Of a stretch of 32,000 nucleotides of DNA, positions 6,588 to 28,891 are shown piece after piece. The stretch spans positions 330,001 to 362,000 of the forward strand of contig CP065016.1 of the NCBI GenBank assembly GCA_016700375.1. The letters run 5' to 3'. The notes under the pieces were generated by a model. It searched no databases. It was given only the letters and a program-made list of their open reading frames with translations, and was not told the origin of the DNA. Both the position numbers and the translations under genes were made by a program. The stretch's first letter is position 1. Every line of letters begins with the position of its first letter. Source of the stretch: Candidatus Saccharimonadota bacterium (GTDB lineage: Bacteria > Patescibacteriota > Saccharimonadia > Saccharimonadales > UBA4665).

Positions 6588-6603
6588 GTCGGCTGGTACT
6601 CCT

Positions 6604-12368: not shown

Positions 12369-12408
12369 TAAGCTGATTAAACTATAGGCAAGACTAAGGA
12401 GCAACTAT

Positions 12409-13482: not shown

Positions 13483-13495
13483 TCTGCCGGGGTCG

Positions 13496-14107: not shown

Positions 14108-14148
14108 AGCAAAACCTCTCAAACGACTTTATAGTAAAAACATCACAA

Positions 14149-14176
14149 AGTATACTCTATTCAGCAATTTTGACAA
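14149..14176 (-). promoter_or_regulatory. candidate sigma70-type promoter
   Basis: The minus strand reads TTGTCA (14176-14171), a 16-nt spacer, then TATACT (14154-14149). This is the same architecture as the promoter at 9897-9924. Confidence 0.4.
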
Positions 14177-14236
14177 GAGCGCAACTAGTACTTTTGCAAT
14201 ATTAGGAGCCGCCGCTAGGTACCCGCTGGTTCTTGG

Positions 14237-14818: not shown

Positions 14819-15039
14819 ACCACCGTTTTACCTCATCATGTCCAAAAAGTAAATTGCTTGTCTTTGTGTTTTTGTCAATACGCATGTATAACTAGGCCTG
14901 AATCTCGGACACACCCGTCCTGATGGTTCGCGTTGTAGTACGCGGCCGCCCACAAGGCAACCCGTACCCACACATTAGGCCCCGGACCAACCCGGTCTGC
15001 TGGGCTTATGTCCTTTTACACCCCCCGAAGGAGGAGACC

Positions 15040-16071
15040 ATGCGAAACGTTCAGAAATGGGCGCCAGTAGCGTTCATAGCAACCGCACTAGTCATTGTGC
15101 TGGGGCTTGCCCTAGTCACGATATCGGTCGGCGGCAACGCCGCGCCGGGCTGGTTGGCCGCCGCCCTGCTCATCGGCACTGCCGTATGGCTCGCACGCCG
15201 CCCACGCCGCCCGCTCCCGCCGTCGCTCCAGGAGCGACTGGGCGTCGAACTCGCCGAGCGCGGCGTCATGCACGCCGTCGCCGGCACGGTCGAGGAGGAA
15301 GCTCCCACCCAGGAGCTCCCACCCGCACCGGAACCGACGCCAACGCACGACGAGCCAGGTGACGACCCTGTGGTTCAGCGCGCGCTACGACACTGGATTT
15401 CCCAGTTACCATCGTTGCTCGTGGCAGCCGGTTCGCTCGTCGCGTTGGTCGTCGTCCGCGCGAACGAGGACAACGGCGTCTACGGCTGGGTCATCGCGAT
15501 CCTCGTGATGATTGGCTTCGGGATCATCGTCCTGCGGCCTTACTTCGCAGCCGTAGAAAAGGTTGGCGAAGCCTACCGACGACTCCGGGGCATCAAGCGT
15601 ACCACAATCGCGTGGACGAGCATCGGCATCGGCTGTCTCATCGCGGCGTTCGTCCTCTGGTGGTACCAAGCCCAGGTCTCACTGGACCTCAGCTGGCTGT
15701 GGTCGGCGCTGGTGTGGCTCGCTGAGCGACTGTGGGGACTCGCGCAAGCGGTGTTCCAGTCGCCCGCCACGGCGATGACGGTCGTCATCGCGTTCGCCTT
15801 CATCAAGATGGTGTTCTCGCTGCTCGTCTGGGCGAGCAACCCCATTGTGATCACGGAGGCGTCGATCACGGCCGTGTCGGGAATTCTCCGCAAGTCGGAA
15901 CCAAAGGTCGATTTTGACCAAATCACCGACTTGACTCCCGTCTACCCCTTCAAATTGCGCCGCATCCAGCTGCCATGGTGCACGCTCAAGGTCGAGACCG
16001 CGGGACAAAACCAGGGGTTCGATGAGATCCCATGGTTCCCGACGAAGTATTTGCGATACGTCAAGACCTGA
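15040..16071 (+). CDS. polytopic membrane protein with C-terminal bacterial-PH-like (YdbS/YdbT, bPH_2-like) domain, encoded in high-GC island 2
   Basis: ATG 15040 is preceded by GAAGGAGGAG. There are several TM helices. The C-terminal 'ITEASITAVSGILRKSEPKVDFDQITDLTPVYPFKLRRIQLPWCTLKVETAGQ' resembles bPH domains; that domain call is tentative. The region shows very high GC3. Confidence 0.65.
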   Translation: MRNVQKWAPVAFIATALVIVLGLALVTISVGGNAAPGWLAAALLIGTAVWLARRPRRPLPPSLQERLGVELAERGVMHAVAGTVEEEAPTQELPPAPEPTPTHDEPGDDPVVQRALRHWISQLPSLLVAAGSLVALVVVRANEDNGVYGWVIAILVMIGFGIIVLRPYFAAVEKVGEAYRRLRGIKRTTIAWTSIGIGCLIAAFVLWWYQAQVSLDLSWLWSALVWLAERLWGLAQAVFQSPATAMTVVIAFAFIKMVFSLLVWASNPIVITEASITAVSGILRKSEPKVDFDQITDLTPVYPFKLRRIQLPWCTLKVETAGQNQGFDEIPWFPTKYLRYVKT

Positions 16072-16178
16072 CGGGTCGCAAAGGGTGTTGAAGGACATGG
16101 AGCGCGGCGGGCGTACGAGGCAACCCCTCACACCCCGCCGCGCTCCAAGACACTCTATGTATAAAAAGAAGTTACATT

Positions 16179-16228
16179 ACCTGAATCACGAAGCTTTTGT
16201 CCGTGTCATTCCGAGCACTAAATCAAGA
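16179..16228 (+). repeat. left part of a short (about 89 bp) deletion derivative of the MITE, split by the IS3 element
   Basis: ACCTGAATCACGAAGCTTTTGTCCGTGTCATTCCGAGCACTAAATCAAGA is near-identical to the first ~47 nt of the copy at 17497. Confidence 0.7.
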
Positions 16229-16307
16229 TGTCACCCTCCCCATATACTGAACACACCGTCTAGCTAGCAGGCGGTACAATATATCTAATCTGAAGGGAGT
16301 TTTTCGT

Positions 16308-16565
16308 ATGCCTGTTGGCAAACATATTGAGCAACATATAAAAGATGAAATCATCCTCAAAATACGAGATGGTGGTCTCAAGGTCAGTGAAGCTGCTGAC
16401 CAGTACGGGGTTAGTAGCAAGACCATCTACGGTTGGCTAAGAGCTGGTGTTGTAGACGGCAACCGTAACCTCATCCTCGAAAACAATCGACTCAAGCGTG
16501 AGCTTGAGCAGGCCTACCGAGTGCTTGGTAGGCTGACCGCCGAAAGTCAGCGCCCAAAAGGTTAG
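16308..16565 (+). CDS. IS3 transposase OrfA (HTH DNA-binding plus leucine-zipper-like region)
   Basis: The HTH is 'LKVSEAADQYGVSSKTIYGWL', followed by the coiled 'LILENNRLKRELEQAYRVLGRL'. SD GAAGGGAG is upstream. Confidence 0.85.
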   Translation: MPVGKHIEQHIKDEIILKIRDGGLKVSEAADQYGVSSKTIYGWLRAGVVDGNRNLILENNRLKRELEQAYRVLGRLTAESQRPKG

Positions 16566-17446
16566 CTGCCCTGGACGAGGTCGACCCAGGGTGGCGCAAG
16601 CAATACAGCAAGCTCCTGGGCCTTGGCCGGACAAGCTACTATGTTCGTCCAGCGAAACAAGCAGAAACCGACCGACAGGCTATTGCGCGGCTACAGGCAG
16701 CCCACGAACTCCACCCATTCTACGGCGTCGACCGGTTAGCACTGCACCTTGGCTGGAACAAAAAGAAAACCAGACGTATCCGTACGCTTGCGGGTGTTAT
16801 CATACCGACACCAACTAAGAAGCGTCGGAGCGGTTGGTCTGCAGCAGCAGAGATTAGCGCACCGCCTAACGCTCTACAGTGCTACGCTCGTCTTAAAGAC
16901 GAGCTGCGGCCACAGGACGGTCAAAGCTATGCCGACATGGTCAATGCTCATGCGTGGGCGCAGGACTTTACATACCTGTGGTTCGAGAAGCGCTGGCACT
17001 ATCTGGCGGTGGTGCTCGACCTGAAAACCAGGCAAGTGGTTGGTTGGCGGCTCGGTACACGACATACCAGCGAGCTGACCCACGAGGCACTACTCGATGC
17101 ACTCAGCAAGCATCCAGCGCCAGCAATCCTCCACTCTGATCAAGGTTCTGAATACTTGAGCTACAGGCACCAAGACCTCTGCAACAAAATGGAAATCCAA
17201 CTTAGTGCGAGCACCAAAGCCAGCCCCTGGCAGAATGGTTTCATGGAGCGATGGTTTGGTGGCTTCAAGCGCGAAGTCTGCAACCTGACACAATACAAAA
17301 ACTTAGCGGCACTCCACGAAGCCATTGCCCTGCACATCTACTATTACAACCATAAGCGTATCCACAGCGCATTAAAGATGAGCCCGGCAGCTTACGCTGC
17401 CAGTCTCAACAAGAGAGACAGGGTGTTCGCTAAAAGGGGAGGTTGA
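16532..17446 (+). CDS. IS3 transposase OrfB (rve/DDE integrase core), expressed as an OrfAB fusion by -1 frameshifting
   Basis: The frame is open from 16532 with no start codon of its own until 16937. The DDE residues lie in 'WAQDFTYL', 'LHSDQGSEY' and 'NGFMERWF'. The C-terminal 'YYNHKRIHSAL' is typical of IS3. Confidence 0.8.
   Translation, partial: ADRRKSAPKRLAALDEVDPGWRKQYSKLLGLGRTSYYVRPAKQAETDRQAIARLQAAHELHPFYGVDRLALHLGWNKKKTRRIRTLAGVIIPTPTKKRRSGWSAAAEISAPPNALQCYARLKDELRPQDGQSYADMVNAHAWAQDFTYLWFEKRWHYLAVVLDLKTRQVVGWRLGTRHTSELTHEALLDALSKHPAPAILHSDQGSEYLSYRHQDLCNKMEIQLSASTKASPWQNGFMERWFGGFKREVCNLTQYKNLAALHEAIALHIYYYNHKRIHSALKMSPAAYAASLNKRDRVFAKRGG
16553..16559 (+). promoter_or_regulatory. 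programmed -1 ribosomal frameshift heptamer C CCA AAA
   Basis: An X XXY YYZ heptamer lies in the orfA frame 2 codons before its stop. The -1 frame is open from 16532 and continues into the DDE domain, giving the fusion ..ESQRPK/RLAALDEV.. Confidence 0.6.
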
Positions 17447-17451
17447 CAAGA

Positions 17452-17490
17452 TGACGTCTTCACGGTGTCAGTGAGATTCATGATTCAGAC
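17452..17490 (+). repeat. right part of the IS-disrupted short MITE derivative
   Basis: TGACGTCTTCACGGTGTCAGTGAGATTCATGATTCAGAC aligns to the right end (GATGACATTG..TTCGTGATTCAGGT) of the full copies, with a degenerate TIR. Confidence 0.6.
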
Positions 17491-17496
17491 TGAAGA

Positions 17497-17710
17497 ACCT
17501 GAGTCACGAAGCTTTTGTCCCTGTCATTCCGAGTACTGAATCAAGTTCAGCATAAACTCCGTCTGAGGAATCTCCTTATTTTACTTGTAGCTATATGGTG
17601 AAAAGAAGATCTTTCGACTTCTCCGCTGTGCAGCGGATTCGCTCAAAGCCTGCCCTCGACCCGATCGGGGGATGACATTGTATGGTGTTCTCTGGTTTCG
17701 TGATTCAGGT
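17497..17710 (+). mobile_element. MITE copy A (214 bp), non-coding
   Basis: The terminal inverted repeats are ACCTGAGTCACGAAGC and GTTTCGTGATTCAGGT. A perfect 6-bp target duplication TGAAGA flanks it (17491-17496 and 17711-17716). It matches the reverse complement of 23189-23423 apart from a few substitutions and one 21-bp indel. Confidence 0.8.
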
Positions 17711-17768
17711 TGAAGACTATTGCTTCCGTGTCAATTTTATGTAATAATTAAATGTACAGGAGAACCCT

Positions 17769-17999
17769 ATGGCAAAAGCATCATTTGAAACAGTACCAGA
17801 GCTACCGGGCGAGGAACCATTTCGCCCAGCGAGTGAAAAGAGTTCCGGCATTATCCTTTTTGGCACGCCGGCCACGACCGCGCACGGCGTACCAGGCCAC
17901 TGGACAGGAGGAAATGGAGACAAGGAATTCTACCCTACCCGGGAGTACATCGAGGGTATGCAACAGCCAGATACCCCAACCGAGCCAAATTCGTTCTAA
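17769..17999 (+). CDS. small hypothetical protein (76 aa)
   Basis: AGGAG lies 6 nt upstream of ATG 17769. The product is acidic and Pro/Gly/Thr-rich, with no motif I recognise. Confidence 0.5.
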   Translation: MAKASFETVPELPGEEPFRPASEKSSGIILFGTPATTAHGVPGHWTGGNGDKEFYPTREYIEGMQQPDTPTEPNSF

Positions 18000-18191
18000 G
18001 GTTCAAATAGCATTCCGATGTTGTAAAAATCGTATACTTTATTTGCGTTTGGGCAAAAAGTAGTACTCTATATGGGTAACGAAAGGCTCGTAGAGCCTTG
18101 AGGTGTAGTACCCGAACGGACACTCCCGTCCGATTCGGCTTGACATACCGCGGTCGCCCCTGTGGCACCGCAGAGAGGTAAGGTGGTCAGC

Positions 18192-18437
18192 ATGACGACC
18201 TCGCTCATCACGGCAGACCCCGTTCCCCAGCCAACCACCCTGACCCTCAGTTGGGGCGGCATCACGGCATGGAGCCTCTTCGTGGGGCTTTTTGTGGTCT
18301 TCCTCCTGTACTCATGGAAGGGAAGGGAGCCGGCTCGTTCACACGCAGCCTGGGCGTGGAAGGTTCAGATTCTGACCTTCCTGCTCGTCGGGTTCGTGGT
18401 CGGGGTGGTTCTCCCCTGGTGGAACAACCGACGATGA
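18192..18437 (+). CDS. small two-TM membrane protein (81 aa), encoded in high-GC island 3
   Basis: ATG 18192 is preceded by GAGAGGTAAGGTGG. There are two hydrophobic helices (ITAWSLFVGLFVVFLLY and ILTFLLVGFVVGVVLPW). The GC is elevated. Confidence 0.55.
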   Translation: MTTSLITADPVPQPTTLTLSWGGITAWSLFVGLFVVFLLYSWKGREPARSHAAWAWKVQILTFLLVGFVVGVVLPWWNNRR

Positions 18438-18628
18438 ACCCGCCGGTCGGCGCGGAAGTACGAGATTCGTTCTCGCAACCCGCGCCGCCCCCGGCACTTT
18501 GGCAGCCCTGCAGGCTCAAGCCTCGCAAACTCACGTCGTTCGTGCCTCCCTCTCAACCCAAAACCTCTCACACTCCCCACTCTCGCCTTTCGTTACATTT
18601 CTCTTATCAACTAAACAAACTACTCTAT

Positions 18629-18937
18629 ATGAAGCAAACTAGCCCAATATCCTACAAACACGGCTTTGAAATCCCAACACGGTGCGTTGGCTGTCCGTCC
18701 TTAAACCGTATTGTTAGTGCAGCCCTGGCAGACATGGCACCGCACCGCGAGGCGCAAGCGCGCGTTATGGAGGGCAGCGGACTTGTGGATCTAAGCACCG
18801 GCACCCTTTGGGCCTTTCCAGATGCACCTTCAAAATTGCCGCAGCAGCTTGCTCCCCTCGGTGTCGCCATAAAAAACATCTTCCTCGCTGCCCAAGAAGA
18901 CATACACAAGCTCAGTCGCAACTGCCCAGGTATGTAG
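18629..18937 (+). CDS. possible small protein (102 aa); weak call
   Basis: This is the ATG-initiated 3' part of track ORF 18251-18937. It starts where composition returns to ~50% GC. There is no clear SD and no motif. Confidence 0.3.
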   Translation: MKQTSPISYKHGFEIPTRCVGCPSLNRIVSAALADMAPHREAQARVMEGSGLVDLSTGTLWAFPDAPSKLPQQLAPLGVAIKNIFLAAQEDIHKLSRNCPGM

Positions 18938-19007
18938 CAAACATGAGATATATGCTGTTTTACATCAATTTTACGCACCTCGTTGCCGGGCAAAAGGCAA
19001 CTCTTGC

Positions 19008-19889
19008 ATGCCCCTAAGCCAACCAAGCAATTCCGCGCCCGAACCAGAGGTATATAGGACGTTCGAAAACCGTTCCGCTGCGCTCACATACATGTGTGAG
19101 CTGCTTGGCTCTGTTGCGGGACAAGCTCTGGTCGTTGTTTCGTCCAAACAAGCACAGCAGGAAGTACTGCGTTTGCAGGTTGGGAGCGGGCAGCGCATAC
19201 AGTCAGTCCAGAAAGTACCCTCACAGCAAGACCGCCCTAGCATAAGTGTTGCAAGCTACGGTGCAGTATTACAAGCGGCACAGACTCCCTACGGCGTGCG
19301 GCAGATTGACCGGGACACTCAAGAACTTGTTGTGTTCGATAATCCTCACCAGCTGGCGCCACGGCTTATTCGTTTGCTCCGCTGTGCCTTTCCGCTAGCG
19401 CAGCCATTTCGCGCCCTTACAACAAACGCCTCCCCAACCGCAGAACGGTACATGCGCGAAGTGTTTTCAGGCCCGCCAAAATTAGCTCCCGCAAGCCATT
19501 CTGTGGAACGGAGAGAATACATTCCATCATCTTGGGCGGGCACCCGAATCGGGCAGCATTGGCCAGAGCAAACGAACTGTTATGGCGATGGTTTTGACTC
19601 ACGGTTTGCCCTACGGGAAACTGCAGTCTGGAATAGCATACGGCAAGAAAATTGCCCAAACTGCCCCGTAGCAGATAGCTGCCTTGCCGCCGGCCTTTCA
19701 GTGGACCAACACAATGCTGGTAAGCGCCAAAGGTTTTGGGGAGCCTGGGGTGGGCTCAGCGAAGGTGCACGCCGTGAACTCCGTACCGCCCTGCAGCAAG
19801 GTGCGTCTCCCACCGAGTCTGCGTACCTTGTTGAGCGCGCTCGAACATCACACCCTACAGAGACAGAGCCAGTTGTCCGCACGTCCTAA
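19008..19889 (+). CDS. 293-aa protein with C-terminal WhiB-like (Wbl) 4Fe-4S domain and an unrecognised ~200-aa N-terminal domain
   Basis: The C-terminus 'NCYGDGFDSRF..(25 aa)..CPNCPVADSCLAAGL..GAWGGLSEGARREL' reproduces the Wbl pattern C-x(n)-C-x2-C-x5-C plus the G[VI]WGG turn (compare WhiB1 'CNRCPVTTECLSWAL..GVWGGMSEDERRAL'). Confidence 0.75.
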   Translation: MPLSQPSNSAPEPEVYRTFENRSAALTYMCELLGSVAGQALVVVSSKQAQQEVLRLQVGSGQRIQSVQKVPSQQDRPSISVASYGAVLQAAQTPYGVRQIDRDTQELVVFDNPHQLAPRLIRLLRCAFPLAQPFRALTTNASPTAERYMREVFSGPPKLAPASHSVERREYIPSSWAGTRIGQHWPEQTNCYGDGFDSRFALRETAVWNSIRQENCPNCPVADSCLAAGLSVDQHNAGKRQRFWGAWGGLSEGARRELRTALQQGASPTESAYLVERARTSHPTETEPVVRTS

Positions 19890-19943
19890 ACCTTTTTGTT
19901 GACTCACATTTTTTATACTAATGTTGCTTTATAAAAAACTTTA

Positions 19944-19972
19944 TTGACTTTTACAATTATTCCTACTACAGT
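19944..19972 (+). promoter_or_regulatory. candidate promoter of the lipoprotein gene
   Basis: TTGACT (19944-19949), a 17-nt spacer, then TACAGT (19967-19972), about 30 nt upstream of ATG 20004. Confidence 0.35.
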
Positions 19973-20003
19973 GTTTCTCACAGTAAGTTTTAGGAGAATA
20001 TTT

Positions 20004-20477
20004 ATGGCACGACGCGGAACACTTATAGGGGAGGGGCGAGGTACACGGAGTTTAGTGGTAGCAGGCGTAGCGGCGGCTGCATTTGCGCTTGGCGGTTGTG
20101 GTGATTACCGCCAAACGAACCCGTCACCAAGTCCAAAAACGGGTACAACTAAGGACATGGCTACTTCGCAAGCAGTAGAAATCTATACAAACCCGAACCT
20201 TGAGGGTGTATTTGGCGAACGCTCATCAATTGGTGGAATTTTCTTGCAGGTGAAAGATAAGTCAACAAATAAACCAGTCGGCGACTTTGAGTTAGCTTGC
20301 TCAGCCGGTGAAATACATGCTATTGATAACACCACGTTTATGGGTGGCAACGAGTTAATCATGAAGGGAAAGATTAATAAGTTCTGCGATGGTAATGAAA
20401 TAATTCCAGCTTTCTTCGCACAAGATCCCACTACCGTAGGCAAAATTGTCATGGTAGCTCAGGCCGAACAAAGTTAA
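20004..20477 (+). CDS. hypothetical lipoprotein (157 aa)
   Basis: AGGAGA lies 7 nt upstream. The signal peptide has lipobox 'ALGG|C'. The mature domain contains two further Cys. Confidence 0.7.
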   Translation: MARRGTLIGEGRGTRSLVVAGVAAAAFALGGCGDYRQTNPSPSPKTGTTKDMATSQAVEIYTNPNLEGVFGERSSIGGIFLQVKDKSTNKPVGDFELACSAGEIHAIDNTTFMGGNELIMKGKINKFCDGNEIIPAFFAQDPTTVGKIVMVAQAEQS

Positions 20478-20796
20478 ACTACGAACCAACTACTAGGTTC
20501 AGATATGGATTCTTAAGTCTCTCTGCCCGGGCAAACATCTGAAATCATAAGATCGTTGCCCTACGCGCCTGTCGGAGCTAGGAGATTCCGGGTTTTTTGG
20601 GCGGCCCGGCCGGTATTGTAACTAAACTCGGCTCAACACCCGCGTAACAATAACCTCGGCCTACTTACGTCCTAGTAACAAGCTTAGTTCTTTGATCTGT
20701 TTAGGACCTTCTTAATGATGCTCAGTGTCATCAGACTTATGCGTCAAATTTGACCTCTATTTCATACATGTACCGATTATATTTTTAAAAATCTAT

Positions 20797-20825
20797 TTGT
20801 TATATTCACATTTGAGTTGTATAAT
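20797..20825 (+). promoter_or_regulatory. sigma70-type promoter of the methyltransferase/MazG unit
   Basis: TTGTTA (20797-20802), a 17-nt spacer, then consensus TATAAT (20820-20825) preceded by TG, in a very AT-rich stretch. Confidence 0.5.
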
Positions 20826-20865
20826 AAGGTCTAATTTAGTCTTACATATCATGAGGTTTTTTAAA

Positions 20866-22449
20866 ATGAGTGAGCGAATGTCCTTTCACGTTGCCGATGG
20901 TCTTGATAGCTCTTGCAATGTAATGTCCCCTTCGTATCTAGGAAATAATCCCGTCCTATTGGTGTCTGCAAATATGCCTGGGTGTGGAGCCACCACGCTA
21001 GTAAAAAGAATTGGGGAGAGTATACAACGTTTAGGCTTCCCTGACCCAGCAGTAGTTCAAGTTGGACAGCAGATAAGAGAGCGCCTCGGGGTAGCTAATG
21101 AGGAGCAGCTTGCGGGTCGATTAGGTGAAGTTGGCAACCCTAACGTAATCGATCGCGCAATATATAGTGAGCTGCCAGACGACAGAATATGCATCGTTGA
21201 TGGCAAGCTAGCTACAACTACTGCGCCATTACACTTACCGAATAATCGGCCGATTGTTTCTATCAACCTGAGTTCAGATCTGCTAACGAGTACTAAGCGA
21301 GTTCTTGAGAGAGAGTCAGGAGTCACGACTGAAAGGCTACTTACCACTGAGGCCTCGGTGCTAGTCTCTCGACTAGCCTTACTTTCAGCCAGGGCTAATC
21401 ACGATAATAGCATGCGAGACCAAGTGGGGTCGAAAACTGAAGACCGAAAACCGGATTTTGCGATATCAATTAATACAAACTCCATGTCCATGGACGAGAT
21501 ACTAGAATATTTTAGCGGTAACCCCAAGAGTAAGCATTTTGAAGACTACGTCCCGGACTGGGAAATCGAGGCAGTACGTAATACCCTAGCTTCACTTGCA
21601 TACCTGAAGGTCGTGTTTGACAAAACTACCAGAGCTAACGATCGTGTACATTTTGACTTCCAATACCAAAGCGTACTGTACAATCTTGATCGACTTGAGA
21701 CCACTCTTCACCCTGCAGGCCTAAAGGATATCCGCAACGCCCTACGCAAAGCGTTAGTCGACTGCTGGATGGGTTTAATGATGAAGGAAGTCCCACGATT
21801 CTTTGAAGACAAAGATGGCAATATATCTCTAGATACAATCTCACATACATGGTCCCCTGAATATTATAAGATTGCTGAAGCTTGGCCAATATTAAGCACT
21901 ATACTGAAGAAAAAAAGTGTACTTGATCCTTTCGGAGGCGCGGGAACAATGATAAACCTATTAGCTGCACGCGGAATAATATCGAGTGCGATCGTTACTG
22001 ATTTATCGTACAGAGGCGGCGAGCCGATTGATGACGATGGACACACCTACGCCGCCGAACTTAACGCACAGATGTCTCACGTTTTATTCGACGGTTTGCC
22101 CTCGTGGTATAAACCAAATATGGATATCGTGGTAGATAGGTTTAGCGCAAACGCACAGTCCTTACCAGTCCCGAATGATTCTGTTGACTACATCGTTACA
22201 GACCCTCCCTATAGTAAGAATCATGATAGTGGTGGAATAGGGTTGCTAATTGGTTGTCTTCCTGAGTTTCAGCGAGTTACACGAAAAGGTTCAATCATAA
22301 TGGCACCACTAAAGTCTCCTGCTGCGGGAGTAGACTGGCCAGCTCAGATTAGTAATGCCGGTTTCCCAGTCGAAAAACTTAGCAAAGATATTTCTCGTGG
22401 CCAATCAGGGTTTCCGATGTGCTACATTAAGGTAGGCCATCGTAAATAA
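20866..22449 (+). CDS. fusion protein: N-terminal cytidylate/NMP-kinase-like domain with degenerate P-loop plus C-terminal SAM-dependent DPPY methyltransferase
   Basis: ATG 20866 lies 9 nt after GAGG; ATG 20851 is an alternative start. The N-terminal 'LLVSANMPGCGATTLVKRI..IVDGKLATT..' resembles CMP kinase but lacks the Walker-A Lys. The C-terminus has motif I 'VLDPFGGAGTM' and motif IV 'YIVTDPPYS'. Motif I lies before motif IV, as in gamma-type N6A/N4C DNA methyltransferases or m2G RNA methylases. Confidence 0.75.
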   Translation: MSERMSFHVADGLDSSCNVMSPSYLGNNPVLLVSANMPGCGATTLVKRIGESIQRLGFPDPAVVQVGQQIRERLGVANEEQLAGRLGEVGNPNVIDRAIYSELPDDRICIVDGKLATTTAPLHLPNNRPIVSINLSSDLLTSTKRVLERESGVTTERLLTTEASVLVSRLALLSARANHDNSMRDQVGSKTEDRKPDFAISINTNSMSMDEILEYFSGNPKSKHFEDYVPDWEIEAVRNTLASLAYLKVVFDKTTRANDRVHFDFQYQSVLYNLDRLETTLHPAGLKDIRNALRKALVDCWMGLMMKEVPRFFEDKDGNISLDTISHTWSPEYYKIAEAWPILSTILKKKSVLDPFGGAGTMINLLAARGIISSAIVTDLSYRGGEPIDDDGHTYAAELNAQMSHVLFDGLPSWYKPNMDIVVDRFSANAQSLPVPNDSVDYIVTDPPYSKNHDSGGIGLLIGCLPEFQRVTRKGSIIMAPLKSPAAGVDWPAQISNAGFPVEKLSKDISRGQSGFPMCYIKVGHRK

Positions 22450-22458
22450 GGATACCCC

Positions 22459-22758
22459 ATGAACCTTAAAGAGTTACAGGCTGACTTAAAAGATATCTGC
22501 AACAAAAATGGCTGGAGTAGACTTGATACTACAGCGGTTTTTTTGCTTTTTTCCGAAGAGATTGGAGAGCTGGCGAAGGAAATACGTCTTCATACCGGTA
22601 TAAAAGGCGAGAAGAAACCGAAAAATACGGCCAATCTAAACGCCGAGTTTGCTGATGTGCTCAACTATTTTATGGAGCTCGCAAATCGATTCGACATCGA
22701 CCTTACTGAGGCGTACCTGCAAAAAAAAGCTGTCAACCAACTGCGCAACTGGAAATAG
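22459..22758 (+). CDS. MazG-like all-alpha NTP pyrophosphohydrolase (99 aa)
   Basis: It starts 9 nt after the preceding stop. The metal-binding motifs are 'EEIGELAKE' (EExxExxxE) and 'EFADVLNY' (ExxD). Confidence 0.8.
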   Translation: MNLKELQADLKDICNKNGWSRLDTTAVFLLFSEEIGELAKEIRLHTGIKGEKKPKNTANLNAEFADVLNYFMELANRFDIDLTEAYLQKKAVNQLRNWK

Positions 22759-23188
22759 TTTTAAATAACATTGCATATAATGCCTATTACTCGTATGATA
22801 CTACCTGACCACCGGTCAAGGTAACACTCCGCAAAACGCGTCGAGCGCTACCCTAGAAGAGGGTAGTCTACTGGAGGAGGATGGGATTGGGTAGGTCAAT
22901 CAACACCCAGTTCAGGATGAACGTTCACTCGAAGGAACAGGAGGAGAAGAAGTCGGCAATGCCGGCAGAGCAAAAGAGGGCGCGTCGCCGCAAACGGCGT
23001 AGACGGCGCTAAGCAGGCCTAGACTGCCGGGGAAGGTGGCACATTAGGCGTTCAGCGCCACCTTCCCCGCCAAAAACCAGCCTAAACAAGACCTTCGCCT
23101 TTACCCATCAATCACAAACCATCAACCCACAATCAACCACCTCCTCGGTTTTCTACCTTCTTCTTCTCCCAGTATGTAATGCTTATAA

Positions 23189-23423
23189 ACCTGAATCACG
23201 AAACCAAATAACACCGTACAATGTCATCCCCCGATCGGGTCCAGGGCAGGCCCGATCGGGTCGAGGGCAGGCTTTGAGCGAATCCGCTGCACAGCGGAGA
23301 AGTCGAAAGATCTTCTTTTCACCATATAGCTACAAGTAAAATAAGGAGATTCCTCAGACGGAGTTTATGCTGAACTTGATTCAGTACTCGGAATGACACG
23401 GACAAAAGCTTCGTGATTCAGGT
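23189..23423 (-). mobile_element. MITE copy B (235 bp), inverted relative to copy A
   Basis: It has the same TIRs (ACCTGAATCACGAAAC and GCTTCGTGATTCAGGT) and a perfect 6-bp target duplication TTATAA (23183-23188 and 23424-23429). It contains an internal tandem 21-bp duplication (CCCGATCGGGTCCAGGGCAGG / CCCGATCGGGTCGAGGGCAGG) that is absent from copy A. Confidence 0.8.
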
Positions 23424-23459
23424 TTATAACTCTTCTGAAAGACCCCAAGGGTTATGTAA

Positions 23460-24845
23460 TCAAGCGACTATGAATCCTACCTTAGCACTCGCGAGGCCCG
23501 TGTAGTTAGTCTCGGGGGAGCGGATGAGTTCTTTTTCTGAGTCGGTGAATTGAGTCCAGTAGCTAGCGATGCCTTCCGTCTGGGATGCCACTTCGTACAG
23601 AGAGAGGTTTCGCTCCATTGCCTCGTGGGCGAGTGCTTTTGAAGCCTCGTGCGCGGTTGTGTGGCCGTATTTTTCGAGCAGCAAATACAGCGGTTCGGCA
23701 GCAATGGCACCTTTGGTGAGGTAGAGGTTGCGTTGCATGGCTTCTTCGTCAACCTCAATCTTGCTCATGACGCTTTGTAGCCGTGACGCCATGGCCGCGA
23801 CACTAGCGAGTGATATCGTGTAGAACCGCGCTGACGACGAATCGGTCAGGTCCCGTTGGTGTTCACTCGATATATTCAGGTTGGCGTTCATCACCTGCGC
23901 AGTTACTTGCTTCCACATGCCAATAATGTTTTCGAAATTCCACGGGTTACGCTTGTGCGCCATGGTACTGCTGCCTGTTTGACCTTCTTCAAACTTTTCT
24001 CGCACCTCGCCGATTTCGCTGCGCTGGAGGTTACGCATATCGTGCGAAAGGTTCGCCATAACCCCCGCAGTAATTGCCAGCTCGTCCAATAGCCGTATAT
24101 AGCCCTCGGCAGGTACAATTTGCGTTGCGGCCGGAGCCGGTTCCAGTCCCACATAGCCAAGCACTGTTTTTTCAAATGCCAGCGGGTCATCTACAAACAC
24201 CGAAATAGCATTGTAGGTACCCACTGCACCGGAAAACTTGCCCTTGAGCTCACCGGCCAGCGTTTCGAGATGTGCCATGCTATCGCCCAGCCGTTGCACA
24301 TAGGTTGCCAGGAAATACCCGAAAGTAATCGGCACGGCGTGTTGGCCATGCGTTCGGCCAATCTGCAAGGTTTCGGCGTAGCGTTCCGCCAGCTCTGCGA
24401 GCGTGCTGTGCAATGCCGTGAGGCGGGGGAGTAGTAGCTCGTGCACCGCAGTACGCAGCTGCAAGCTCATGGCCGTTGAGACAATGTCGTACGATGTCGC
24501 GCCAAAGTGCACATACGGCTGCGCCGTTTCGGGCAGCTCTTTCTTAATAGTGTTTACAATGGCTTTTACATCGTGACGTGTGGTTTTTTCTTCTTCGGCA
24601 ACGTCTTCTACCCGAATCTTCCGGCTCGCCGTATCAATCTGCTCGGCCACTTCGCGGCTACATATGCCAAACTCGGCGAGCCCGTAGGCCAGAGCTGCTT
24701 CCACATGAGCTTGTGTGAGAATCCGTGTGCGCTCCGAAAGGTAACGGGCAATTTCGGGGTCGTAGTAACGGCCATCGAGTGGGTCAACTGAGTTAAATCG
24801 ATTGTCTTCACTGGGCAGGTCGAGATTAAGGGGCTGTAGGCTCAT
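23460..24845 (-). CDS. purB: adenylosuccinate lyase
   Basis: The fumarate-lyase signature 'GSSTMAHKRNP' is present, along with the N-terminal 'DPLDGRYYDPEIARYLSE' typical of PurB. The start was chosen at ATG 24845 (MSLQPLNL..); the track's upstream extension reads through a repeat array. Confidence 0.9.
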   Translation of the reverse strand: MSLQPLNLDLPSEDNRFNSVDPLDGRYYDPEIARYLSERTRILTQAHVEAALAYGLAEFGICSREVAEQIDTASRKIRVEDVAEEEKTTRHDVKAIVNTIKKELPETAQPYVHFGATSYDIVSTAMSLQLRTAVHELLLPRLTALHSTLAELAERYAETLQIGRTHGQHAVPITFGYFLATYVQRLGDSMAHLETLAGELKGKFSGAVGTYNAISVFVDDPLAFEKTVLGYVGLEPAPAATQIVPAEGYIRLLDELAITAGVMANLSHDMRNLQRSEIGEVREKFEEGQTGSSTMAHKRNPWNFENIIGMWKQVTAQVMNANLNISSEHQRDLTDSSSARFYTISLASVAAMASRLQSVMSKIEVDEEAMQRNLYLTKGAIAAEPLYLLLEKYGHTTAHEASKALAHEAMERNLSLYEVASQTEGIASYWTQFTDSEKELIRSPETNYTGLASAKVGFIVA

Positions 24846-24872
24846 GAGCAAACCTCTTCTAGGGAGATTAGC

Positions 24873-24922
24873 GTGTAGCGTGTGACATGTGGCATTGGTG
24901 TAGCGTGTGACATGTAGCCATG
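24873..24922. repeat. tandem 25-bp direct repeat (2 units) within a GTGACA/TGTCAC hexamer cluster
   Basis: GTGTAGCGTGTGACATGTGGCATTG (24873-24897) is followed by GTGTAGCGTGTGACATGTAGCCATG (24898-24922). Four more GTGACA/TGTCAC hexamers follow up to 24960. Confidence 0.6.
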
Positions 24923-24978
24923 GTGACACGTGACAGGGCAATCCAATGTCACAGGTGACAGGATTATGGGTAATCTAC

Positions 24979-25932
24979 TCATTTTTCCTCCAATGCGTGG
25001 CGCATATTAGTTTCAATCCGTTTTTCTATATCAGTTGTATCTGGTCTTTCAAAAGTTTGGCCAGTCAGTTTTTCGTACACGTACACGTAGCGGCGTTCTA
25101 ACTCGGTAATAATGTCTGCTGGCACACTCGGCGCTTCATTTTCTGCATAGGGGTCAAAACGCTCCTTGAACCACAACCGCATATACTCTTTGTCGTAATT
25201 TTCGGGCTCTTCACCAGCTGCTATGCGCTGTTCATAGGACTCGCCCAGCCAGTAACGCGAAGAATCCTGCGTATGAATTTCATCTATGAGCACTATCTCA
25301 CCCTCTGGTGTCAGCCCAAACTCATACTTGGTGTCCACCAGCAGTAGCCCTGCCGCTTCGGCCTTTTCCTGTCCATATGCAAACAGCTTGAGTGCTATGT
25401 CGCTCACGCGTTCCCAGACTTCATCCTTCAAAAGCCCCTCGGTAATAGCCTCAGCTGGTGTGAGGTTTCGGTCGTGAACTTCAAACTTGGTTGTGGGAGT
25501 AAGAACAGGCTGGGGCAGTTTGTCATTCTTTTTTAGCCCATCTGGCAAGTGAAAGGTGCCGTAATCGCGCTGACCTTCCGAGTACGTGTGCCACAGAGAG
25601 GTGTTTGTGACCCCGGTAATGTAGCCGCGCACCACCATTTCGAGCGGGATGACTTCGTACTTTTTGCAGTACGCCACATTTGGGTCGGGGCACGAGATAA
25701 GATGGTTGGGCACAATGTGTTCGGTTTGGGCAAACCACCACGCGCTGGTTGCGGTAAGCAAAGCTCCCTTGTTCGGTACGAGCGCGAGTATACGGTCAAA
25801 CGCGCTGTAGCGGTCGCTCGCGACCAACATAAGCCGGTCACCAAAGTCATATACATCACGCACTTTACCGTGGTACACCGCTTGGCATCCCGGCAGCTGA
25901 AAATCAGTCCCCTCAAGAATATGTCCACTCAT
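24979..25932 (-). CDS. purC: phosphoribosylaminoimidazole-succinocarboxamide (SAICAR) synthase, long form
   Basis: Characteristic SAICAR synthetase blocks are present: 'YHGKVRDVY', 'LMLVASDRYSAFDR' and 'LLLVDTKYEFGL'. Confidence 0.9.
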   Translation of the reverse strand: MSGHILEGTDFQLPGCQAVYHGKVRDVYDFGDRLMLVASDRYSAFDRILALVPNKGALLTATSAWWFAQTEHIVPNHLISCPDPNVAYCKKYEVIPLEMVVRGYITGVTNTSLWHTYSEGQRDYGTFHLPDGLKKNDKLPQPVLTPTTKFEVHDRNLTPAEAITEGLLKDEVWERVSDIALKLFAYGQEKAEAAGLLLVDTKYEFGLTPEGEIVLIDEIHTQDSSRYWLGESYEQRIAAGEEPENYDKEYMRLWFKERFDPYAENEAPSVPADIITELERRYVYVYEKLTGQTFERPDTTDIEKRIETNMRHALEEK

Positions 25933-26114
25933 AATTATGTAGTATACAGAAAAATGAGCCGTGAGTCATGAGGTAGGGCAAAGGGCTGAGGGCAAAGGGC
26001 AAAGCTGCGGCCGCAGGCCGCTAGCAATTAAGTCGCCGCAGCGATATAACTAGAACAGATGCCGATATGCAGTGAGTGCTCGCTTCGACGCCGTAAGGGA
26101 TGATTCTTGGGGAA

Positions 26115-26264
26115 CCGGGGATGCATAACGACTGATTTGCCCATGACTGCTTGGTTGCTTGCGCGCGGAAGCTGTTTGAACGAAACGAAGTTGAGTGAGT
26201 TCTGCACAAGCCAAACAAGCAAGCAGTCATGGGCAAGTAAGCCGGTCGTTTGCATTATCCCCGG
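26115..26264. repeat. ~150-nt imperfect palindrome in the purC/purK divergent spacer
   Basis: The 17-bp perfect arms are TTGCCCATGACTGCTTG (26137-26153) and CAAGCAGTCATGGGCAA (26220-26236). Outer pairing joins CCGGGGAT (26115-26122) with ATCCCCGG (26257-26264). Confidence 0.5.
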
Positions 26265-26385
26265 CGGTTTACTCTCATTTTGTCCGTACAAAATGAGCCG
26301 CTTGGCAGGTACGGGAACCTGCGTGAAGTGAGGGGGTTGGTGATACTGTGAGATTAAGTAAAAGCACAAAGCCCTAGAAAGGCAT

Positions 26386-26411
26386 GGATCCTGAAACAAG
26401 TTCAGGATGAC
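26386..26411. repeat. solo REP-like hairpin unit
   Basis: GGATCCTGAAACAAGTTCAGGATGAC is the reverse complement of the left unit of the element at 30024 (TGTCATGCTGAACTTGTTTCAGTATCC). Confidence 0.55.
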
Positions 26412-26470
26412 GGTCTGTGGCAACGGTTAGACTATGGGAGTTTTGTGTTACATACGATACAATTATCAGT

Positions 26471-27616
26471 ATGGAACAGGGAGCGGCAAAAAAACCTACC
26501 ATTGGTATTGTCGGAGGCGGCCAGCTCGGACGGATGCTGACGGAAGCTGCCTTACCACTCGGATTTGATGTGGTGGTGGTTGACCCCGGCCAAAACTGCC
26601 CCGCACACCAGGTTGGCGCCGCCGAAATCACGGGCAATCTCTACGACCAAGCTGCCTTACACGAACTGGCGAAACGAAGCGACGTCATAACCGTGGAAAT
26701 TGAGCATCTCGACACGCTCGTACTAGAGGCACTCGAAAAAGAAGGTGCCGTTATACATCCAGCCCCCGCCACTGTCCGGCTCATACAGGATAAATACCTC
26801 CAAAAGGTCTTTTTGCGCGAACATTCCGTCCCGGTTGCCGATTTTACAGAGGTGAATTCCACCCAGGCTGCCGAAAAAGCCCTCGAAGCATTCGGCGGCA
26901 AAATGCTCCTCAAAACCCGTCACGGTGCGTACGACGGCCGTGGCAACATGGTCGTGAGCAGCCCGGCAGATATCAAAAAAGCCTTTGAACTATTTGATGG
27001 AAAGGCTCTTTACGCCGAACGCTTTGTGCCGTTTGAACGGGAACTGGCCGTCATGGTCGGCCGTAGCACCAGCGGGGATGTGCAGGCCTACCCGGTGGTA
27101 CAGACAATACACGAGCGAAACATCTGCGTCGAAGTTCTGTCGCCCGCACCAGTTTCAAAGACGGTCGCCCAAAAAACCCACACCCTCGCCGTCACTGTCG
27201 CAAACCTCCTCAAAGGTGCCGGCATGTACGGCATAGAGATGTTCCTCACCCCCAGCGGGGAAGTGCTGGTAAACGAAATCGCTCCGCGTGTCCACAATAG
27301 CGGCCACCACACCATAGAGGGCAACCGTACCTCACAGTTCGAGCAGCACATTCGCGCTATCACTGGCCTGCCACTCGGCGACGTCAATCTAGCCGCACCG
27401 GCAGCGTGCATGGTGAACATCCTCGGCGAACGAAACGGCGAAACTCAGGTGAAAGGCCTCAGTGATGCACTGGCCATCCCAGGTGTACATGTGCACCTGT
27501 ACGGCAAAAGCCCCACCAAAGTCGACCGCAAAATGGGCCACATCACCGCCACCGCCGACACCCTAGAAACCGCCCGCCAAAACGCCCACGCCGCGCGGAA
27601 GGCGCTAGACATATGA
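26471..27616 (+). CDS. purK: N5-carboxyaminoimidazole ribonucleotide synthase (ATP-grasp)
   Basis: 'IGIVGGGQLGRML' is at the N-terminus and 'NEIAPRVHNSGHHTIE' is present. The start was chosen at ATG 26471. There is no SD, and TACAAT ends 7 nt upstream, so the mRNA may be leaderless. Confidence 0.9.
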   Translation: MEQGAAKKPTIGIVGGGQLGRMLTEAALPLGFDVVVVDPGQNCPAHQVGAAEITGNLYDQAALHELAKRSDVITVEIEHLDTLVLEALEKEGAVIHPAPATVRLIQDKYLQKVFLREHSVPVADFTEVNSTQAAEKALEAFGGKMLLKTRHGAYDGRGNMVVSSPADIKKAFELFDGKALYAERFVPFERELAVMVGRSTSGDVQAYPVVQTIHERNICVEVLSPAPVSKTVAQKTHTLAVTVANLLKGAGMYGIEMFLTPSGEVLVNEIAPRVHNSGHHTIEGNRTSQFEQHIRAITGLPLGDVNLAAPAACMVNILGERNGETQVKGLSDALAIPGVHVHLYGKSPTKVDRKMGHITATADTLETARQNAHAARKALDI

Positions 27617-27624
27617 TTAGCCTC

Positions 27625-27694
27625 TGTCATTCCCGCGTAGGGGGGAATCCAGAAATAAATAATTACTGGATCCCCGTTCAAGCCGGGGATGACA
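27625..27694. repeat. REP-like double hairpin element (70 bp) in the purK-HAD spacer
   Basis: TGTCATTCCCGCGTAGGGGGGAATCC is followed by GGATCCCCGTTCAAGCCGGGGATGACA. The termini TGTCAT and ATGACA are inverted, and the right unit is homologous to 30084-30110. Confidence 0.6.
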
Positions 27695-27710
27695 ACAATG
27701 AGGGAGCGTT

Positions 27711-28376
27711 ATGATTAAACTCGTTGTCTTCGACTGGAACGGCACAATTCTTGCCGATACAGCAGTAGTAGTCGCAGCAATCAATTTTGGAGAGATGCCT
27801 ATACTCAAGCATCCTCCCATCACTGTGGCGGATTACCAGAAATTTTACGACGTGCCACTCCGTCATTATTACCAAGCCCTTGGGGTGAGCGACGAAGACC
27901 ACAAGAAGCACGCCGCAGCGTTAAGCGAAGGGTTCCATAATCATTATGAACAACTTGTTGGAAAGACCAGAACTCGACCCGGCACACGACATGCATTAGG
28001 TATATTACATGAAAAAAAAATACAACGCATCATTCTGAGCAACCACATCACAGACCGCATAACCGAGCAACTAGAGCGACTGAAACTGGCTCATCATTTT
28101 GAGTATATTTTGGCAAATGAACACAGCGGATTAGTCCATCGAACAGGCAAGCAACACCGGCTCGAAAAGTACTTAGAGGAGCACAACATCTCCGCTACAG
28201 ATGTTGTGATTGTAGGCGACTCACTTGAAGAAATCAGAATTGCTCATGCACTTGGGACTAAAGTAATTTCGATAACTGGAGGAACTTGTTCCAGAAAGCG
28301 TTTGCAAAAAGCCAAACCAGATAGAATCATAAGCTCACTATTTCAACTTAGTAAAGCAATGGAGGAGTTGGCATGA
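27711..28376 (+). CDS. HAD-superfamily hydrolase (PGP-like) with atypical motif I
   Basis: Motif I is 'VVFDWNGTI' (DxNGT rather than DxDGT), motif II is 'IILSN' and motif IV is 'VIVGDSLEE'. The stop overlaps the purE start (ATGA). Confidence 0.75.
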   Translation: MIKLVVFDWNGTILADTAVVVAAINFGEMPILKHPPITVADYQKFYDVPLRHYYQALGVSDEDHKKHAAALSEGFHNHYEQLVGKTRTRPGTRHALGILHEKKIQRIILSNHITDRITEQLERLKLAHHFEYILANEHSGLVHRTGKQHRLEKYLEEHNISATDVVIVGDSLEEIRIAHALGTKVISITGGTCSRKRLQKAKPDRIISSLFQLSKAMEELA

Positions 28377-28891
28377 ATAATCCTGTGGTCGGTATTATTA
28401 TGGGCTCAGATAGCGACCTCGACATCATGAGCGAAGCCGCAAAAGTACTCGATGAGTTCGGCGTGACATACGAAGTACGGGTAGTCTCAGCGCATCGCAC
28501 GCCAGACGTTATGGAAGAGTACGCGGCAACCGCAGCCAAACGAGGGCTCAAGGTTATCATTGCTGGTGCAGGCGGCTCGGCGCACCTGCCAGGTATGACC
28601 GCTTCGCACACGGTACTGCCCGTTATTGCCGTGCCAGTAAAGCGCGACCACCACGGCCATGAAGCATTTTGGTCTAGCATAAAAATGCCTCCCGGTGTGC
28701 CGCTCGCCACCATGCCCGAAAACGGCGCAAAAAACGGCGCTCTTATGACCATAGAAATCCTCTCTCTGCTAGATACCAACCTCAGCACTCGGTACGCTGC
28801 TTTCCGCCAAAAACAACACGACAACGTTATTGCCGCCGACACAGAGGTGCAACAAAAAGGCTGGCAAAGCTACCTGAAGGAGGAGGATTGA
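28373..28891 (+). CDS. purE: N5-CAIR mutase (class I PurE)
   Basis: 'VGIIMGSDSD', 'VVSAHRTP' and 'AGAGGSAHLPGM' are present. purK lies in the same operon. Confidence 0.9.
   Translation: MNNPVVGIIMGSDSDLDIMSEAAKVLDEFGVTYEVRVVSAHRTPDVMEEYAATAAKRGLKVIIAGAGGSAHLPGMTASHTVLPVIAVPVKRDHHGHEAFWSSIKMPPGVPLATMPENGAKNGALMTIEILSLLDTNLSTRYAAFRQKQHDNVIAADTEVQQKGWQSYLKEED

Follow-up and report, generated by a model that had tools for sequence, protein, structure and literature searches.

Background

The substrates of known methyltransferases with a [DNS]PP[YFW] motif are nucleic acids or glutamine amides. Among these enzymes, Trm11/Trm-G10 and the remainder of the PF01170 group (RlmKL, Trm14/TrmN) display a class I S-adenosylmethionine (SAM)-dependent methyltransferase fold with a motif I, a "DAxxLP" strand and a DPPYG motif, and RsmD, the 16S rRNA m2G966 (N2-methylguanosine, m2G) methyltransferase, is built on a small amino-group methyltransferase core with a DPPF motif. 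A second group of small enzymes, the nucleoside triphosphate (NTP) pyrophosphohydrolases with the all-alpha MazG fold, includes YpjD, DCTPP1/RS21-C6 and phage MazZ; MazZ and DCTPP1 feed or clean modified-nucleotide pathways, and MazG-like and nucleotide-depleting enzymes occur in defence and counter-defence. Comparable activities meet in the pre-replicative modification pathways of phages, such as the dCTPase, dCMP hydroxymethylase and deoxynucleoside monophosphate (dNMP) kinase of T4 or PurZ/MazZ/DatZ for 2-aminoadenine. Among defence systems, MADS comprises eight genes, includes an N6-adenine DNA methyltransferase and lies in a defence hotspot (bioRxiv 10.1101/2023.03.30.534895). Here we analyse a stretch of 32,000 nucleotides from a Candidatus Saccharimonadota bacterium (contig CP065016.1, positions 330,001 to 362,000; hereafter the window, in whose numbering coordinates are given), in which a gene for a fusion of a kinase-like domain to a DPPY methyltransferase (gene A) is followed by a gene for a MazG-type protein (gene B). 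The parts of this unit are known, namely a Trm11/RsmD-like methyltransferase, a nucleoside monophosphate (NMP)-kinase fold and MazG, and their combination is undescribed and confined to a small family of the Candidate Phyla Radiation (CPR). A preliminary description of the unit knew of no system of this exact architecture, and none was found in annotation (beyond COG labels), Pfam, NCBIfam, PADLOC, PHROGs or the full-text literature; nor did the literature hold a description of the pairing of gene A with MazG.

Architecture of the two-gene unit

Genes A and B form a chromosomal, lineage-restricted two-gene operon with the following features:

20797-20825, + strand: sigma-70-like promoter, TTGTTA-17 nt-TATAAT, with 10 of 12 matches, about 40 nt upstream of the start codon
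20853-20856, + strand: Shine-Dalgarno sequence GAGG of gene A, recognized in the sequence 9 nt before ATG 20866
20866-22449, + strand: gene A, 527 amino acids, a predicted fusion of pseudokinase, helical bundle and amino-group methyltransferase
20947-21510, + strand: NMP-kinase-fold N-terminal domain (N-domain), residues ~28-215, from Foldseek and profile relatives in PF13189
20971-20997, + strand: degenerate P-loop NMPGCGATT, residues 36-44, with Asn for the first Gly and Ala for the Walker A Lys
21556-21780, + strand: three-helix bundle linker, residues 231-305, with AlphaFold2 helices at 231-250, 257-279 and 283-305
21862-22446, + strand: Rossmann-type class I SAM methyltransferase domain, residues 333-527, from PF01170, PF03602, TIGR01177 and Foldseek
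21925-21948, + strand: motif I, DPFGGAGT, for SAM binding, residues 354-361, invariant
22087-22116, + strand: FDGLPSWYKP, residues 408-417, family-specific and almost invariant, in a ~40-residue insertion between beta2 and beta3
22201-22212, + strand: motif IV, DPPY, of the amino-group methyl-acceptor pocket, residues 446-449, invariant
22459-22758, + strand: gene B, 99 amino acids, all-alpha NTP pyrophosphohydrolase of MazG/YpjD/DCTPP1 type
22555-22581 and 22645-22659, + strand: metal-binding motifs EEIGELAKE and EFADV of gene B, with the EExxE...ExxD pattern intact

The long open reading frame (ORF) of gene A (20725-22449, + strand) opens at an upstream GTG. We rejected this longer gene because the placement of the promoter and the Shine-Dalgarno sequence and the N-termini of homologues favour ATG 20866, which is thus supported as the predicted start of a 527-residue protein; the closest homologue (P0001), which begins MSEQMSF, has the same start. 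The stop codon of gene A is separated by 9 nt from gene B, and an AGGA overlaps the stop region. Promoter-like sites are no more frequent in the region than in shuffled sequence (4 observed against 4.8 in shuffles), so that the promoter is called from its position, and a terminator-like hairpin at 20572-20591 closes the gene upstream of gene A. As scans of the window with Rfam and for tRNAs gave no match, no riboswitch or RNA gene is tied to the unit. The G+C content is 44.5% for the unit (45.8% for gene A and 42.3% for gene B) against 52.9% for the remaining window. All that the preliminary description had stated at the level of the sequence, that is the 527- and 99-residue genes, the 9-nt gap, the promoter, the low G+C content and the quoted motifs, was reproduced. 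Its domain calls, of a cytidylate/NMP-kinase-like domain lacking the catalytic lysine, a DPPY SAM methyltransferase and a MazG-type partner, are likewise borne out by hidden Markov model (HMM), Foldseek and PDB matches, as set out below.

Gene A joins a methyltransferase to a degenerate kinase-like domain

An AlphaFold2 model of full-length gene A, built on 23 homologues, is compact and confident (predicted local distance difference test score, pLDDT, 88.7; predicted template modelling score, pTM, 0.87) and consists of three parts, spanning residues ~28-215, 231-305 and 333-527. A comparison of the C-terminal part with characterized families showed that: 1) PF01170 (UPF0020; RlmKL/Trm11/Trm14 type) matches 23 of 23 family members at E<=0.01, the best at 1.1e-09, and the window protein passes its gathering cut-off (26.9 against 22.3 bits) with a match that covers residues 427-477 only. 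2) PF03602 (RsmD) gives weak to sub-threshold matches in 17 of the 23, and the window protein, at 16.6 bits, does not reach the cut-off of 24. 3) TIGR01177 (archaeal Trm-G10) matches at 1.9e-08. 4) The best matches in a sequence-profile search of the PDB are Trm11 (6zxw/6zxv) and Trm14, and the top Foldseek match is again Trm11 (6zxw, 6.0e-08). 5) Outside the family, a search of 5.8 billion sequences places an archaeal TRM11-family protein, with THUMP and PF01170 domains, nearest to gene A. The methyltransferase core has the SAM fold, motif I, "DAxxLP" strand and DPPYG of the Trm11 group. Unlike Trm11, gene A has no Pfam match to a THUMP domain (PF02926), and its N-terminus is modelled as an NMP-kinase fold where Trm11 has THUMP; it further differs in the bundle, in the insertion that bears FDxLPSWYKP, in being acidic and MazG-linked, and in its confinement to Saccharibacteria/CPR. 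With RsmD it has the small amino-group methyltransferase core in common, and the proteins P0002 and P0124 are labelled "RsmD" by JGI; in contrast to RsmD, gene A possesses extra N-terminal domains and DPPY in place of DPPF. Since the matches of Trm11 type are weak and mad2, the DNA methyltransferase profile of MADS, aligns across the core, only the general class is secure: gene A is predicted to be a [D]PPY amino-group N-methyltransferase whose nearest relatives are m2G RNA enzymes.

The N-domain, when modelled separately (pLDDT 85.6), retrieves proteins of the NMP-kinase fold in Foldseek searches, with E-values of 3e-07 to 1e-04 and template modelling (TM) scores of ~0.5. Fap7 (4cvn) stands at the top at 3.3e-07, and is accompanied by the uncharacterized 3fdi and 3hdt, archaeal adenylate kinases, PSTK and UMP/CMP kinase; of these, Fap7 and PSTK are RNA- or ribonucleoprotein-handling P-loop proteins. 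No Pfam family matches the N-domain above threshold, AAA_17 and AAA_18 being reached only at E 0.004-0.08. ATP synthase gamma, which came first in a PDB profile search with this domain (5e-04), was judged spurious as the match is confined to a short beta-alpha-beta stretch, and kinases appeared in that search only at E>0.1. The fold assignment accordingly rests on the structure model together with a profile search of 1.84 billion representative proteins, which reached PF13189 through standalone relatives. That search yielded 35 matches, of which the 24 at E<=1e-10 are the same 485-560-residue fusion or its fragments; the few distant standalone relatives are all PF13189 (Cytidylate_kin2), which justifies the label "cytidylate-kinase-like". 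The N-domain hence has its fold in common with PF13189 and the atypical adenylate kinases (Fap7/AK6 4cvn, 3fdi and 3hdt; Foldseek 3e-07 to 1e-05), and is set apart from them by the lack of an above-threshold Pfam match, by a Walker A motif that is degenerate throughout the family and by its invariable fusion to the bundle and the methyltransferase.

The degeneracy of the P-loop is a property of the family, as none of 38 members has the canonical Walker A pattern GxxxxGK[ST]. When aligned to the PF13189 kinases, NMPGCGATT stands opposite GLPGSGKST, with both the first glycine and the catalytic lysine replaced. The residues of the NMP site and the LID are invariant or nearly so, namely G67 and R71 in VGxxIR, the DGK motif, R128, R145, R149 and R176. 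We infer from this pattern that the N-domain may still bind a phosphate-bearing ligand without transferring phosphate; the missing Walker A lysine makes phosphotransfer by this domain unlikely, and a step of the dNMP-kinase type would be unexpected. Two standalone PF13189 proteins of ~181 residues (P0050 and P0052) also lack the lysine and have GAGSST instead, so that its loss has a precedent in that family.

The gene A family is small and is sharply defined by the invariant motifs PGCGxTT, PRFF (residues 310-313), WxPEYYKxAxxWP (329-341), FDxLPSWYKP (408-417) and DPPY, of which the three in the middle are specific to it. At 90% identity, 5.8 billion proteins contain 25 clusters of it (the search of the 1.84 billion representatives gave ~24 at E<=1e-10), and it is present in 13-16 of 185,579 species representatives, almost all of them Candidatus Saccharibacteria/Saccharimonadales; the others are one bin labelled Nomurabacteria and two further bins. 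Gene A is under purifying selection, with a dN/dS (omega) of 0.117 against its closest relative, which is 91% identical. A 248-residue form, found in a single lineage that includes a human oral metagenome contig, is reduced to a PRFF-like segment and the methyltransferase, with neither the kinase-like nor the helical domain, and lies directly upstream of gene B (L014, 2629-3375; L015, 2830-3576; L039, 2570-3316; L040, 3917-4663). Its ORF is intact, with an omega of ~0.2-0.4 estimated from few substitutions, and it is similar in size to RsmD. Distant short relatives of 325 (P0124) and 273 residues (P0125) have neither the kinase-like domain nor gene B. As methyltransferase-only forms exist, the pseudokinase is an accessory module and not the catalytic core.

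The flanks of the unit are those of housekeeping genes. In the window its neighbours are a lipoprotein-like ORF, a WhiB-like ORF, purB and purC, and at other loci aspS, serS, SecA, a peptidase M16, ribosomal protein S1, an EF-Tu-like GTPase, ClpB, a ROK kinase, RmuC, pyr and pur genes and a class II ribonucleotide reductase (RNR). Across loci no neighbour recurs besides genes A and B, except for purB/purC in the window's own clade, where this synteny is common to the window and relatives at 55-91% gene A identity and marks the window as Saccharibacterial. The unit has a lower G+C content than its flanks in 12 of 14 loci; low G+C is therefore a trait of the family and not a sign of recent import, and with the shared purB/purC synteny it led us to reject recent horizontal transfer. 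The purine genes of the window, at 23460-29997, are the de novo genes purB, purC and purK, with a purE-like AIRC gene recognized by synteny with a related locus (L001), and pyrimidine genes are also present in two relatives (L001 and L005). De novo purine and pyrimidine genes are unusual for Saccharibacteria, which mostly depend on salvage.

Gene B is a generic MazG-type enzyme conserved beside gene A

Gene B passes the cut-off of PF08761 (6.9e-06; 26.9 against 22.9 bits) and falls just under that of PF03819 (6.3e-04; 20.4 against 22 bits), a domain which its homologues carry. In the PDB it matches YpjD (2gta, 1e-06), DCTPP1 (1.4e-04) and MazZ (1.4e-03), and it also matches phage pyrophosphatase PHROGs. 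With YpjD (2gta), DCTPP1/RS21-C6 (7mu5, 2oie) and phage MazZ (7ody) it has in common a similar length, the all-alpha MazG fold and the EExxE...ExxD pattern, and on these grounds it is predicted to be a bona fide single-domain MazG-type NTP pyrophosphohydrolase.

A gene B-like sequence adjoins gene A in 20 of 24 family loci, which are not all independent of each other. The preliminary description had made its reading depend in part on this adjacency, and conserved it is. In 18 loci gene B lies directly downstream on the same strand, and the spacing is -4 to +13 nt at the six homologous loci for which genes were called (L001, L002, L004, L024, L027 and L005). At one locus gene B is convergent (L008) and at another (L039) it lies ~840 nt downstream of gene A; three divergent members of the gene A family (L012, L016 and L017) have no gene B within 6 kb. 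At a further locus, not counted among the 20 (L026, that of P0012), a MazG homologue at 5577-5792 lies 2 kb downstream behind four small ORFs. It stops after ...EEEF and may be a pseudogene or an assembly error.

Proteins of the gene B type outnumber gene A, with 59 clusters, and occur without it. Copies 58-66% identical to that of the window are found next to guaB/guaA (L030) and next to Ham1 with two NUDIX genes (L031); a Chitinophagales contig (L032) has a more distant homologue, again without gene A. The A-linked copies form no clade of their own in a neighbour-joining tree, where they are interspersed with unlinked copies and with copies of unknown linkage. Gene B is thus a general house-cleaning enzyme of Saccharibacteria and not a dedicated partner of gene A. 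Pairwise divergences of A and B are uncorrelated over 11 loci (mirror-tree r=0.02, Mantel p=0.41); two loci (L010 and L011), for instance, are 82% identical in B and 42% in A. The comparison thus supports neither strict co-inheritance nor co-transfer; gene B is short, and at least one of its alleles has been replaced.

The replaced allele emerges from a comparison of the window (20700-23500) with its closest relative, the locus L027 (3337-5900), in which DNA identity is a mosaic: 74-84% in the N-domain of gene A, 92-99% in the remainder of gene A, 58-67% in gene B (22459-22758 against 5094-5390) and 94% again just downstream. Synonymous sites of gene B are saturated between the two (pS 0.89), against a dS of 0.2-0.55 for neighbouring genes. 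One gene B allele has therefore been replaced in place with the adjacency kept, in what looks like recombination. Because the adjacency survived this replacement and is conserved across varied flanks, there is moderate evidence for a functional link between gene A and generic MazG activity; it is no evidence for a co-evolved two-component machine.

Functional implications

We tentatively favour the view that gene A encodes an accessory RNA amino-methyltransferase in which the dead NMP-kinase domain and the bundle hold the substrate, and which is co-transcribed with a nucleotide-pool sanitiser. Gene A would methylate a planar exocyclic amino group, most likely guanine-N2 in tRNA or rRNA (an m2G-type modification), a target favoured because Trm11/Trm14/RlmKL/RsmD are the families to which its catalytic domain comes closest. 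The THUMP domain, the usual RNA-gripping module of Trm11, would here be replaced by the dead kinase domain and the three-helix bundle, and the former may clamp the substrate nucleotide or phosphate, perhaps a terminal or flipped nucleotide. Gene B, from the same transcript, would keep non-canonical NTPs out of the substrate pool of polymerases, possibly methylated ones that arise from turnover or salvage. The 248-residue form fits a small RsmD-like enzyme. We prefer an RNA substrate since [DNS]PP[YFW] enzymes of this type are not known to use free mononucleotides physiologically and since the closest families are RNA m2G methyltransferases.

Several observations pull in the other direction. 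The match to TIGR01177 reaches 34 bits, where the curated cut-off is 316.55, and the similarity to RNA m2G methyltransferases is weak, at ~21% identity and with HMM alignments of only 51-79 residues; the longer alignment is that of mad2, a DNA N6-adenine methyltransferase profile of PADLOC, which spans the whole core (residues 326-494, 1.4e-07). Gene A has no recognized RNA-binding domain, and all family members are acidic, with isoelectric points (pI) of 5.0-6.4; this last is weak evidence, as many RNA methyltransferases are acidic. The family is also much less widespread than enzymes that modify rRNA or tRNA typically are, and we know of no characterized RNA methyltransferase that is linked to a MazG gene. 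Finally, the conserved link to gene B and the retained arginines of the nucleotide site fit a free-nucleotide substrate at least as naturally. Should the substrate nevertheless be RNA, gene A would represent a new build of RNA amino-methyltransferase, with a dead NMP-kinase domain in the clamp role of THUMP, in a group of bacteria, the Saccharibacteria, whose RNA modification is little known, and its pseudokinase would join the few P-loop folds that have been reused for binding and not for catalysis.

The alternative that survives best is methylation of free nucleotides, which we regard as possible, though unlikely. Gene B would turn an NTP or dNTP into an NMP, the lysine-less domain would hold this by its NMP-site and LID arginines and the DPPY domain would methylate the amino group of its base, to give for example N2-methyl-GMP, N4-methyl-CMP or N6-methyl-AMP; alternatively, gene B might remove the methylated triphosphate. 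This retains the metabolic core of the preliminary description, in which a module that binds nucleotides works with a methyltransferase and an NTP pyrophosphatase on the pool of free nucleotides, and drops the phage and defence setting in which it had been placed. The adjacency of A and B persists at pairwise gene A identities down to 34% with flanks that are otherwise unrelated, and it was retained through the allele replacement; nevertheless gene B is unspecialised, its A-linked copies being scattered in the tree and uncorrelated in divergence with A (r=0.02), and the divergent members L012, L016 and L017 lack it within 6 kb. Likewise, the N-domain retains cleft residues typical of NMP kinases, but the methyltransferase-only form persists beside gene B with no such domain. 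The neighbourhoods include genes of nucleotide metabolism, namely purB/purC/purK in the window, pyr and pur genes (L001, L005) and the class II RNR (L004), as do those of gene B alone, beside guaAB or NUDIX/Ham1, and the fold of gene B includes MazZ and DCTPP1; however, no enzyme for the use or export of a methylated nucleotide recurs nearby. We know, moreover, of no [DNS]PP[YFW] methyltransferase of UPF0020/RsmD type that uses free mononucleotides physiologically. What keeps a free-nucleotide substrate in consideration is the uniformly acidic pI and the rarity of the family, the lack of a precedent for a MazG link, the cleft arginines and the nucleotide-metabolism neighbourhoods. Taken as a whole, the scheme in which gene A N-methylates the base of a free nucleotide that its lysine-less cleft offers to the DPPY pocket, as one half of a metabolic pair whose MazG member supplies the NMP or destroys the methylated NTP, appears rather improbable. 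It would, if true, be the first cellular case of SAM-dependent N-methylation of mononucleotides coupled to a MazG enzyme, a non-phage pathway that modifies or sanitises nucleotides before polymerisation, and would bear on the way in which the salvage-dependent episymbionts of the CPR handle modified nucleotides.

That gene A is an orphan DNA methyltransferase (m6A/m4C), with the pseudokinase and bundle as an unusual target-recognition module and gene B unrelated or loosely linked, is doubtful. DPPY is the classic motif of DNA amino-methyltransferases, and the mad2 alignment over residues 326-494 (1.4e-07) is accompanied by several weak matches to Type II methyltransferases in PADLOC, by PHROG DNA methyltransferase families at 1e-04 to 2e-02 and by PF01555 in 3 of 23 members, for which the window protein is itself below threshold (13.1 against 26.7 bits); it reaches the threshold of no DNA methyltransferase family of this kind, PF02384 included. 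The best family and structure matches are nonetheless RNA methyltransferases, and gene A combines a pI of 5.0-6.4 with the lack of any recognizable target-recognition or DNA-binding domain. The patchy distribution and the G+C content below that of the flanks are typical of accessory methyltransferases; against this, the loci display no association with mobile elements or nucleases and the family has no phage- or plasmid-like relatives. In particular, as the preliminary description had concluded, this is not a restriction-modification system: there is no restriction or specificity gene adjacent to the unit, and no nuclease recurs near gene A in 18 loci.

An anti-phage defence or exclusion module, in which gene A modifies nucleotides or nucleic acid and gene B depletes unmodified or aberrant NTPs during infection, is very unlikely, and the link to phage nucleotide modification, exclusion or nucleotide depletion drawn in the preliminary description is not supported, for there are no viral relatives, no defence context and no catalytic lysine. 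Relatives of gene A were found neither in IMG/VR contigs by a pattern scan nor by tblastn in INPHARED/GenBank phages (50,697 phage records); a Foldseek search of BFVD with the full gene A model gave matches to the methyltransferase only (query-normalized TM score, TMq, <=0.28) and no two-domain match, and a scan of PHROGs gave generic methyltransferases only. PADLOC returned weak methyltransferase-domain matches for gene A (mad2 at 1.4e-07 and generic Type II enzymes), none for gene B and no system-level match; of the eight genes that MADS needs, only mad2 is represented here, by a weakly similar domain, and the remaining seven are absent. Defence and counter-defence do offer precedents for MazG-like and nucleotide-depleting enzymes; B-type genes, however, also occur without A in ordinary nucleotide-metabolism contexts. 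There are further points in favour: the unit abuts a ~19.5-kb island with an insertion sequence (IS) element in the window, an HsdR gene lies ~5.5 kb from it at one locus (L004), a gene B allele has been replaced, and within A divergence is fastest in the N-domain. At the other loci the neighbourhoods are of core housekeeping type and only A and B recur. Phage pre-replicative modification follows the same logic on paper, joining an NTP pyrophosphatase and a base-modifying enzyme to an NMP-kinase-like module, but the gene A module lacks the catalytic lysine, viral homologues are absent, the contexts are chromosomal and housekeeping, and an amino-group SAM methyltransferase takes the part of the modifier in place of a thymidylate-synthase-like or PurA-like enzyme.

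Equally improbable is a protein methyltransferase of HemK/PrmC type, acting on a glutamine amide or similar group, whose acidic pseudokinase would dock onto a basic protein of the ribosome or of translation, in the manner of Fap7 on uS11: glutamine methyltransferases are among the [DN]PPY enzymes and have this motif in common with gene A, which is acidic and has a helical bundle before its methyltransferase domain, and Foldseek ranks Fap7, from its complex with Rps14, as the structure closest to the N-domain, yet that match (TM ~0.5) is no better than those of ordinary adenylate kinases, and HemK/PrmC and PrmB are absent from the top 50 Foldseek matches and from the Pfam matches.

Other features of the window

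Upstream of the unit, a stretch of ~19.5 kb (~1197-20700) is absent from the equivalent place in L027, where the ~1.7 kb that separate EamA from gene A are taken up by a His_Phos_1 gene and an IS1595 transposase alone. The stretch encodes a 1110-residue protein that unites an SLT transglycosylase with a peptidase C39-like part, a peptidase M15_4, a polysaccharide deacetylase and, at 19008-19889, a 293-residue protein with a C-terminal WhiB domain, along with many ORFs that have no Pfam match and an rve-type IS fragment at 16937-17446. The stretch possibly represents an integrated element or a prophage-like island whose end lies immediately before the promoter of gene A.

Downstream of gene B lies a 43-residue ORF at 22881-23012 (+ strand) whose tail (KRARRRKRRRRR) is extremely basic; GGAGGAGG stands before the ORF, and a strong GC-rich hairpin at 23029-23071 after it. 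The region is 94% identical in L027, and so more conserved than the adjacent gene B, and may correspond to a real small protein or to a structured RNA. Between gene B and purB, a segment at 23176-23436 that is missing from L027 consists of a ~22-bp terminal inverted repeat (cttataaacctgaatcacgaa / ttcgtgattcaggtttataa) around ~210 bp, with two copies of a tandem direct repeat, cccgatcgggtc[c/g]agggcaggc, in its interior, and looks like an insertion resembling a miniature inverted-repeat transposable element.

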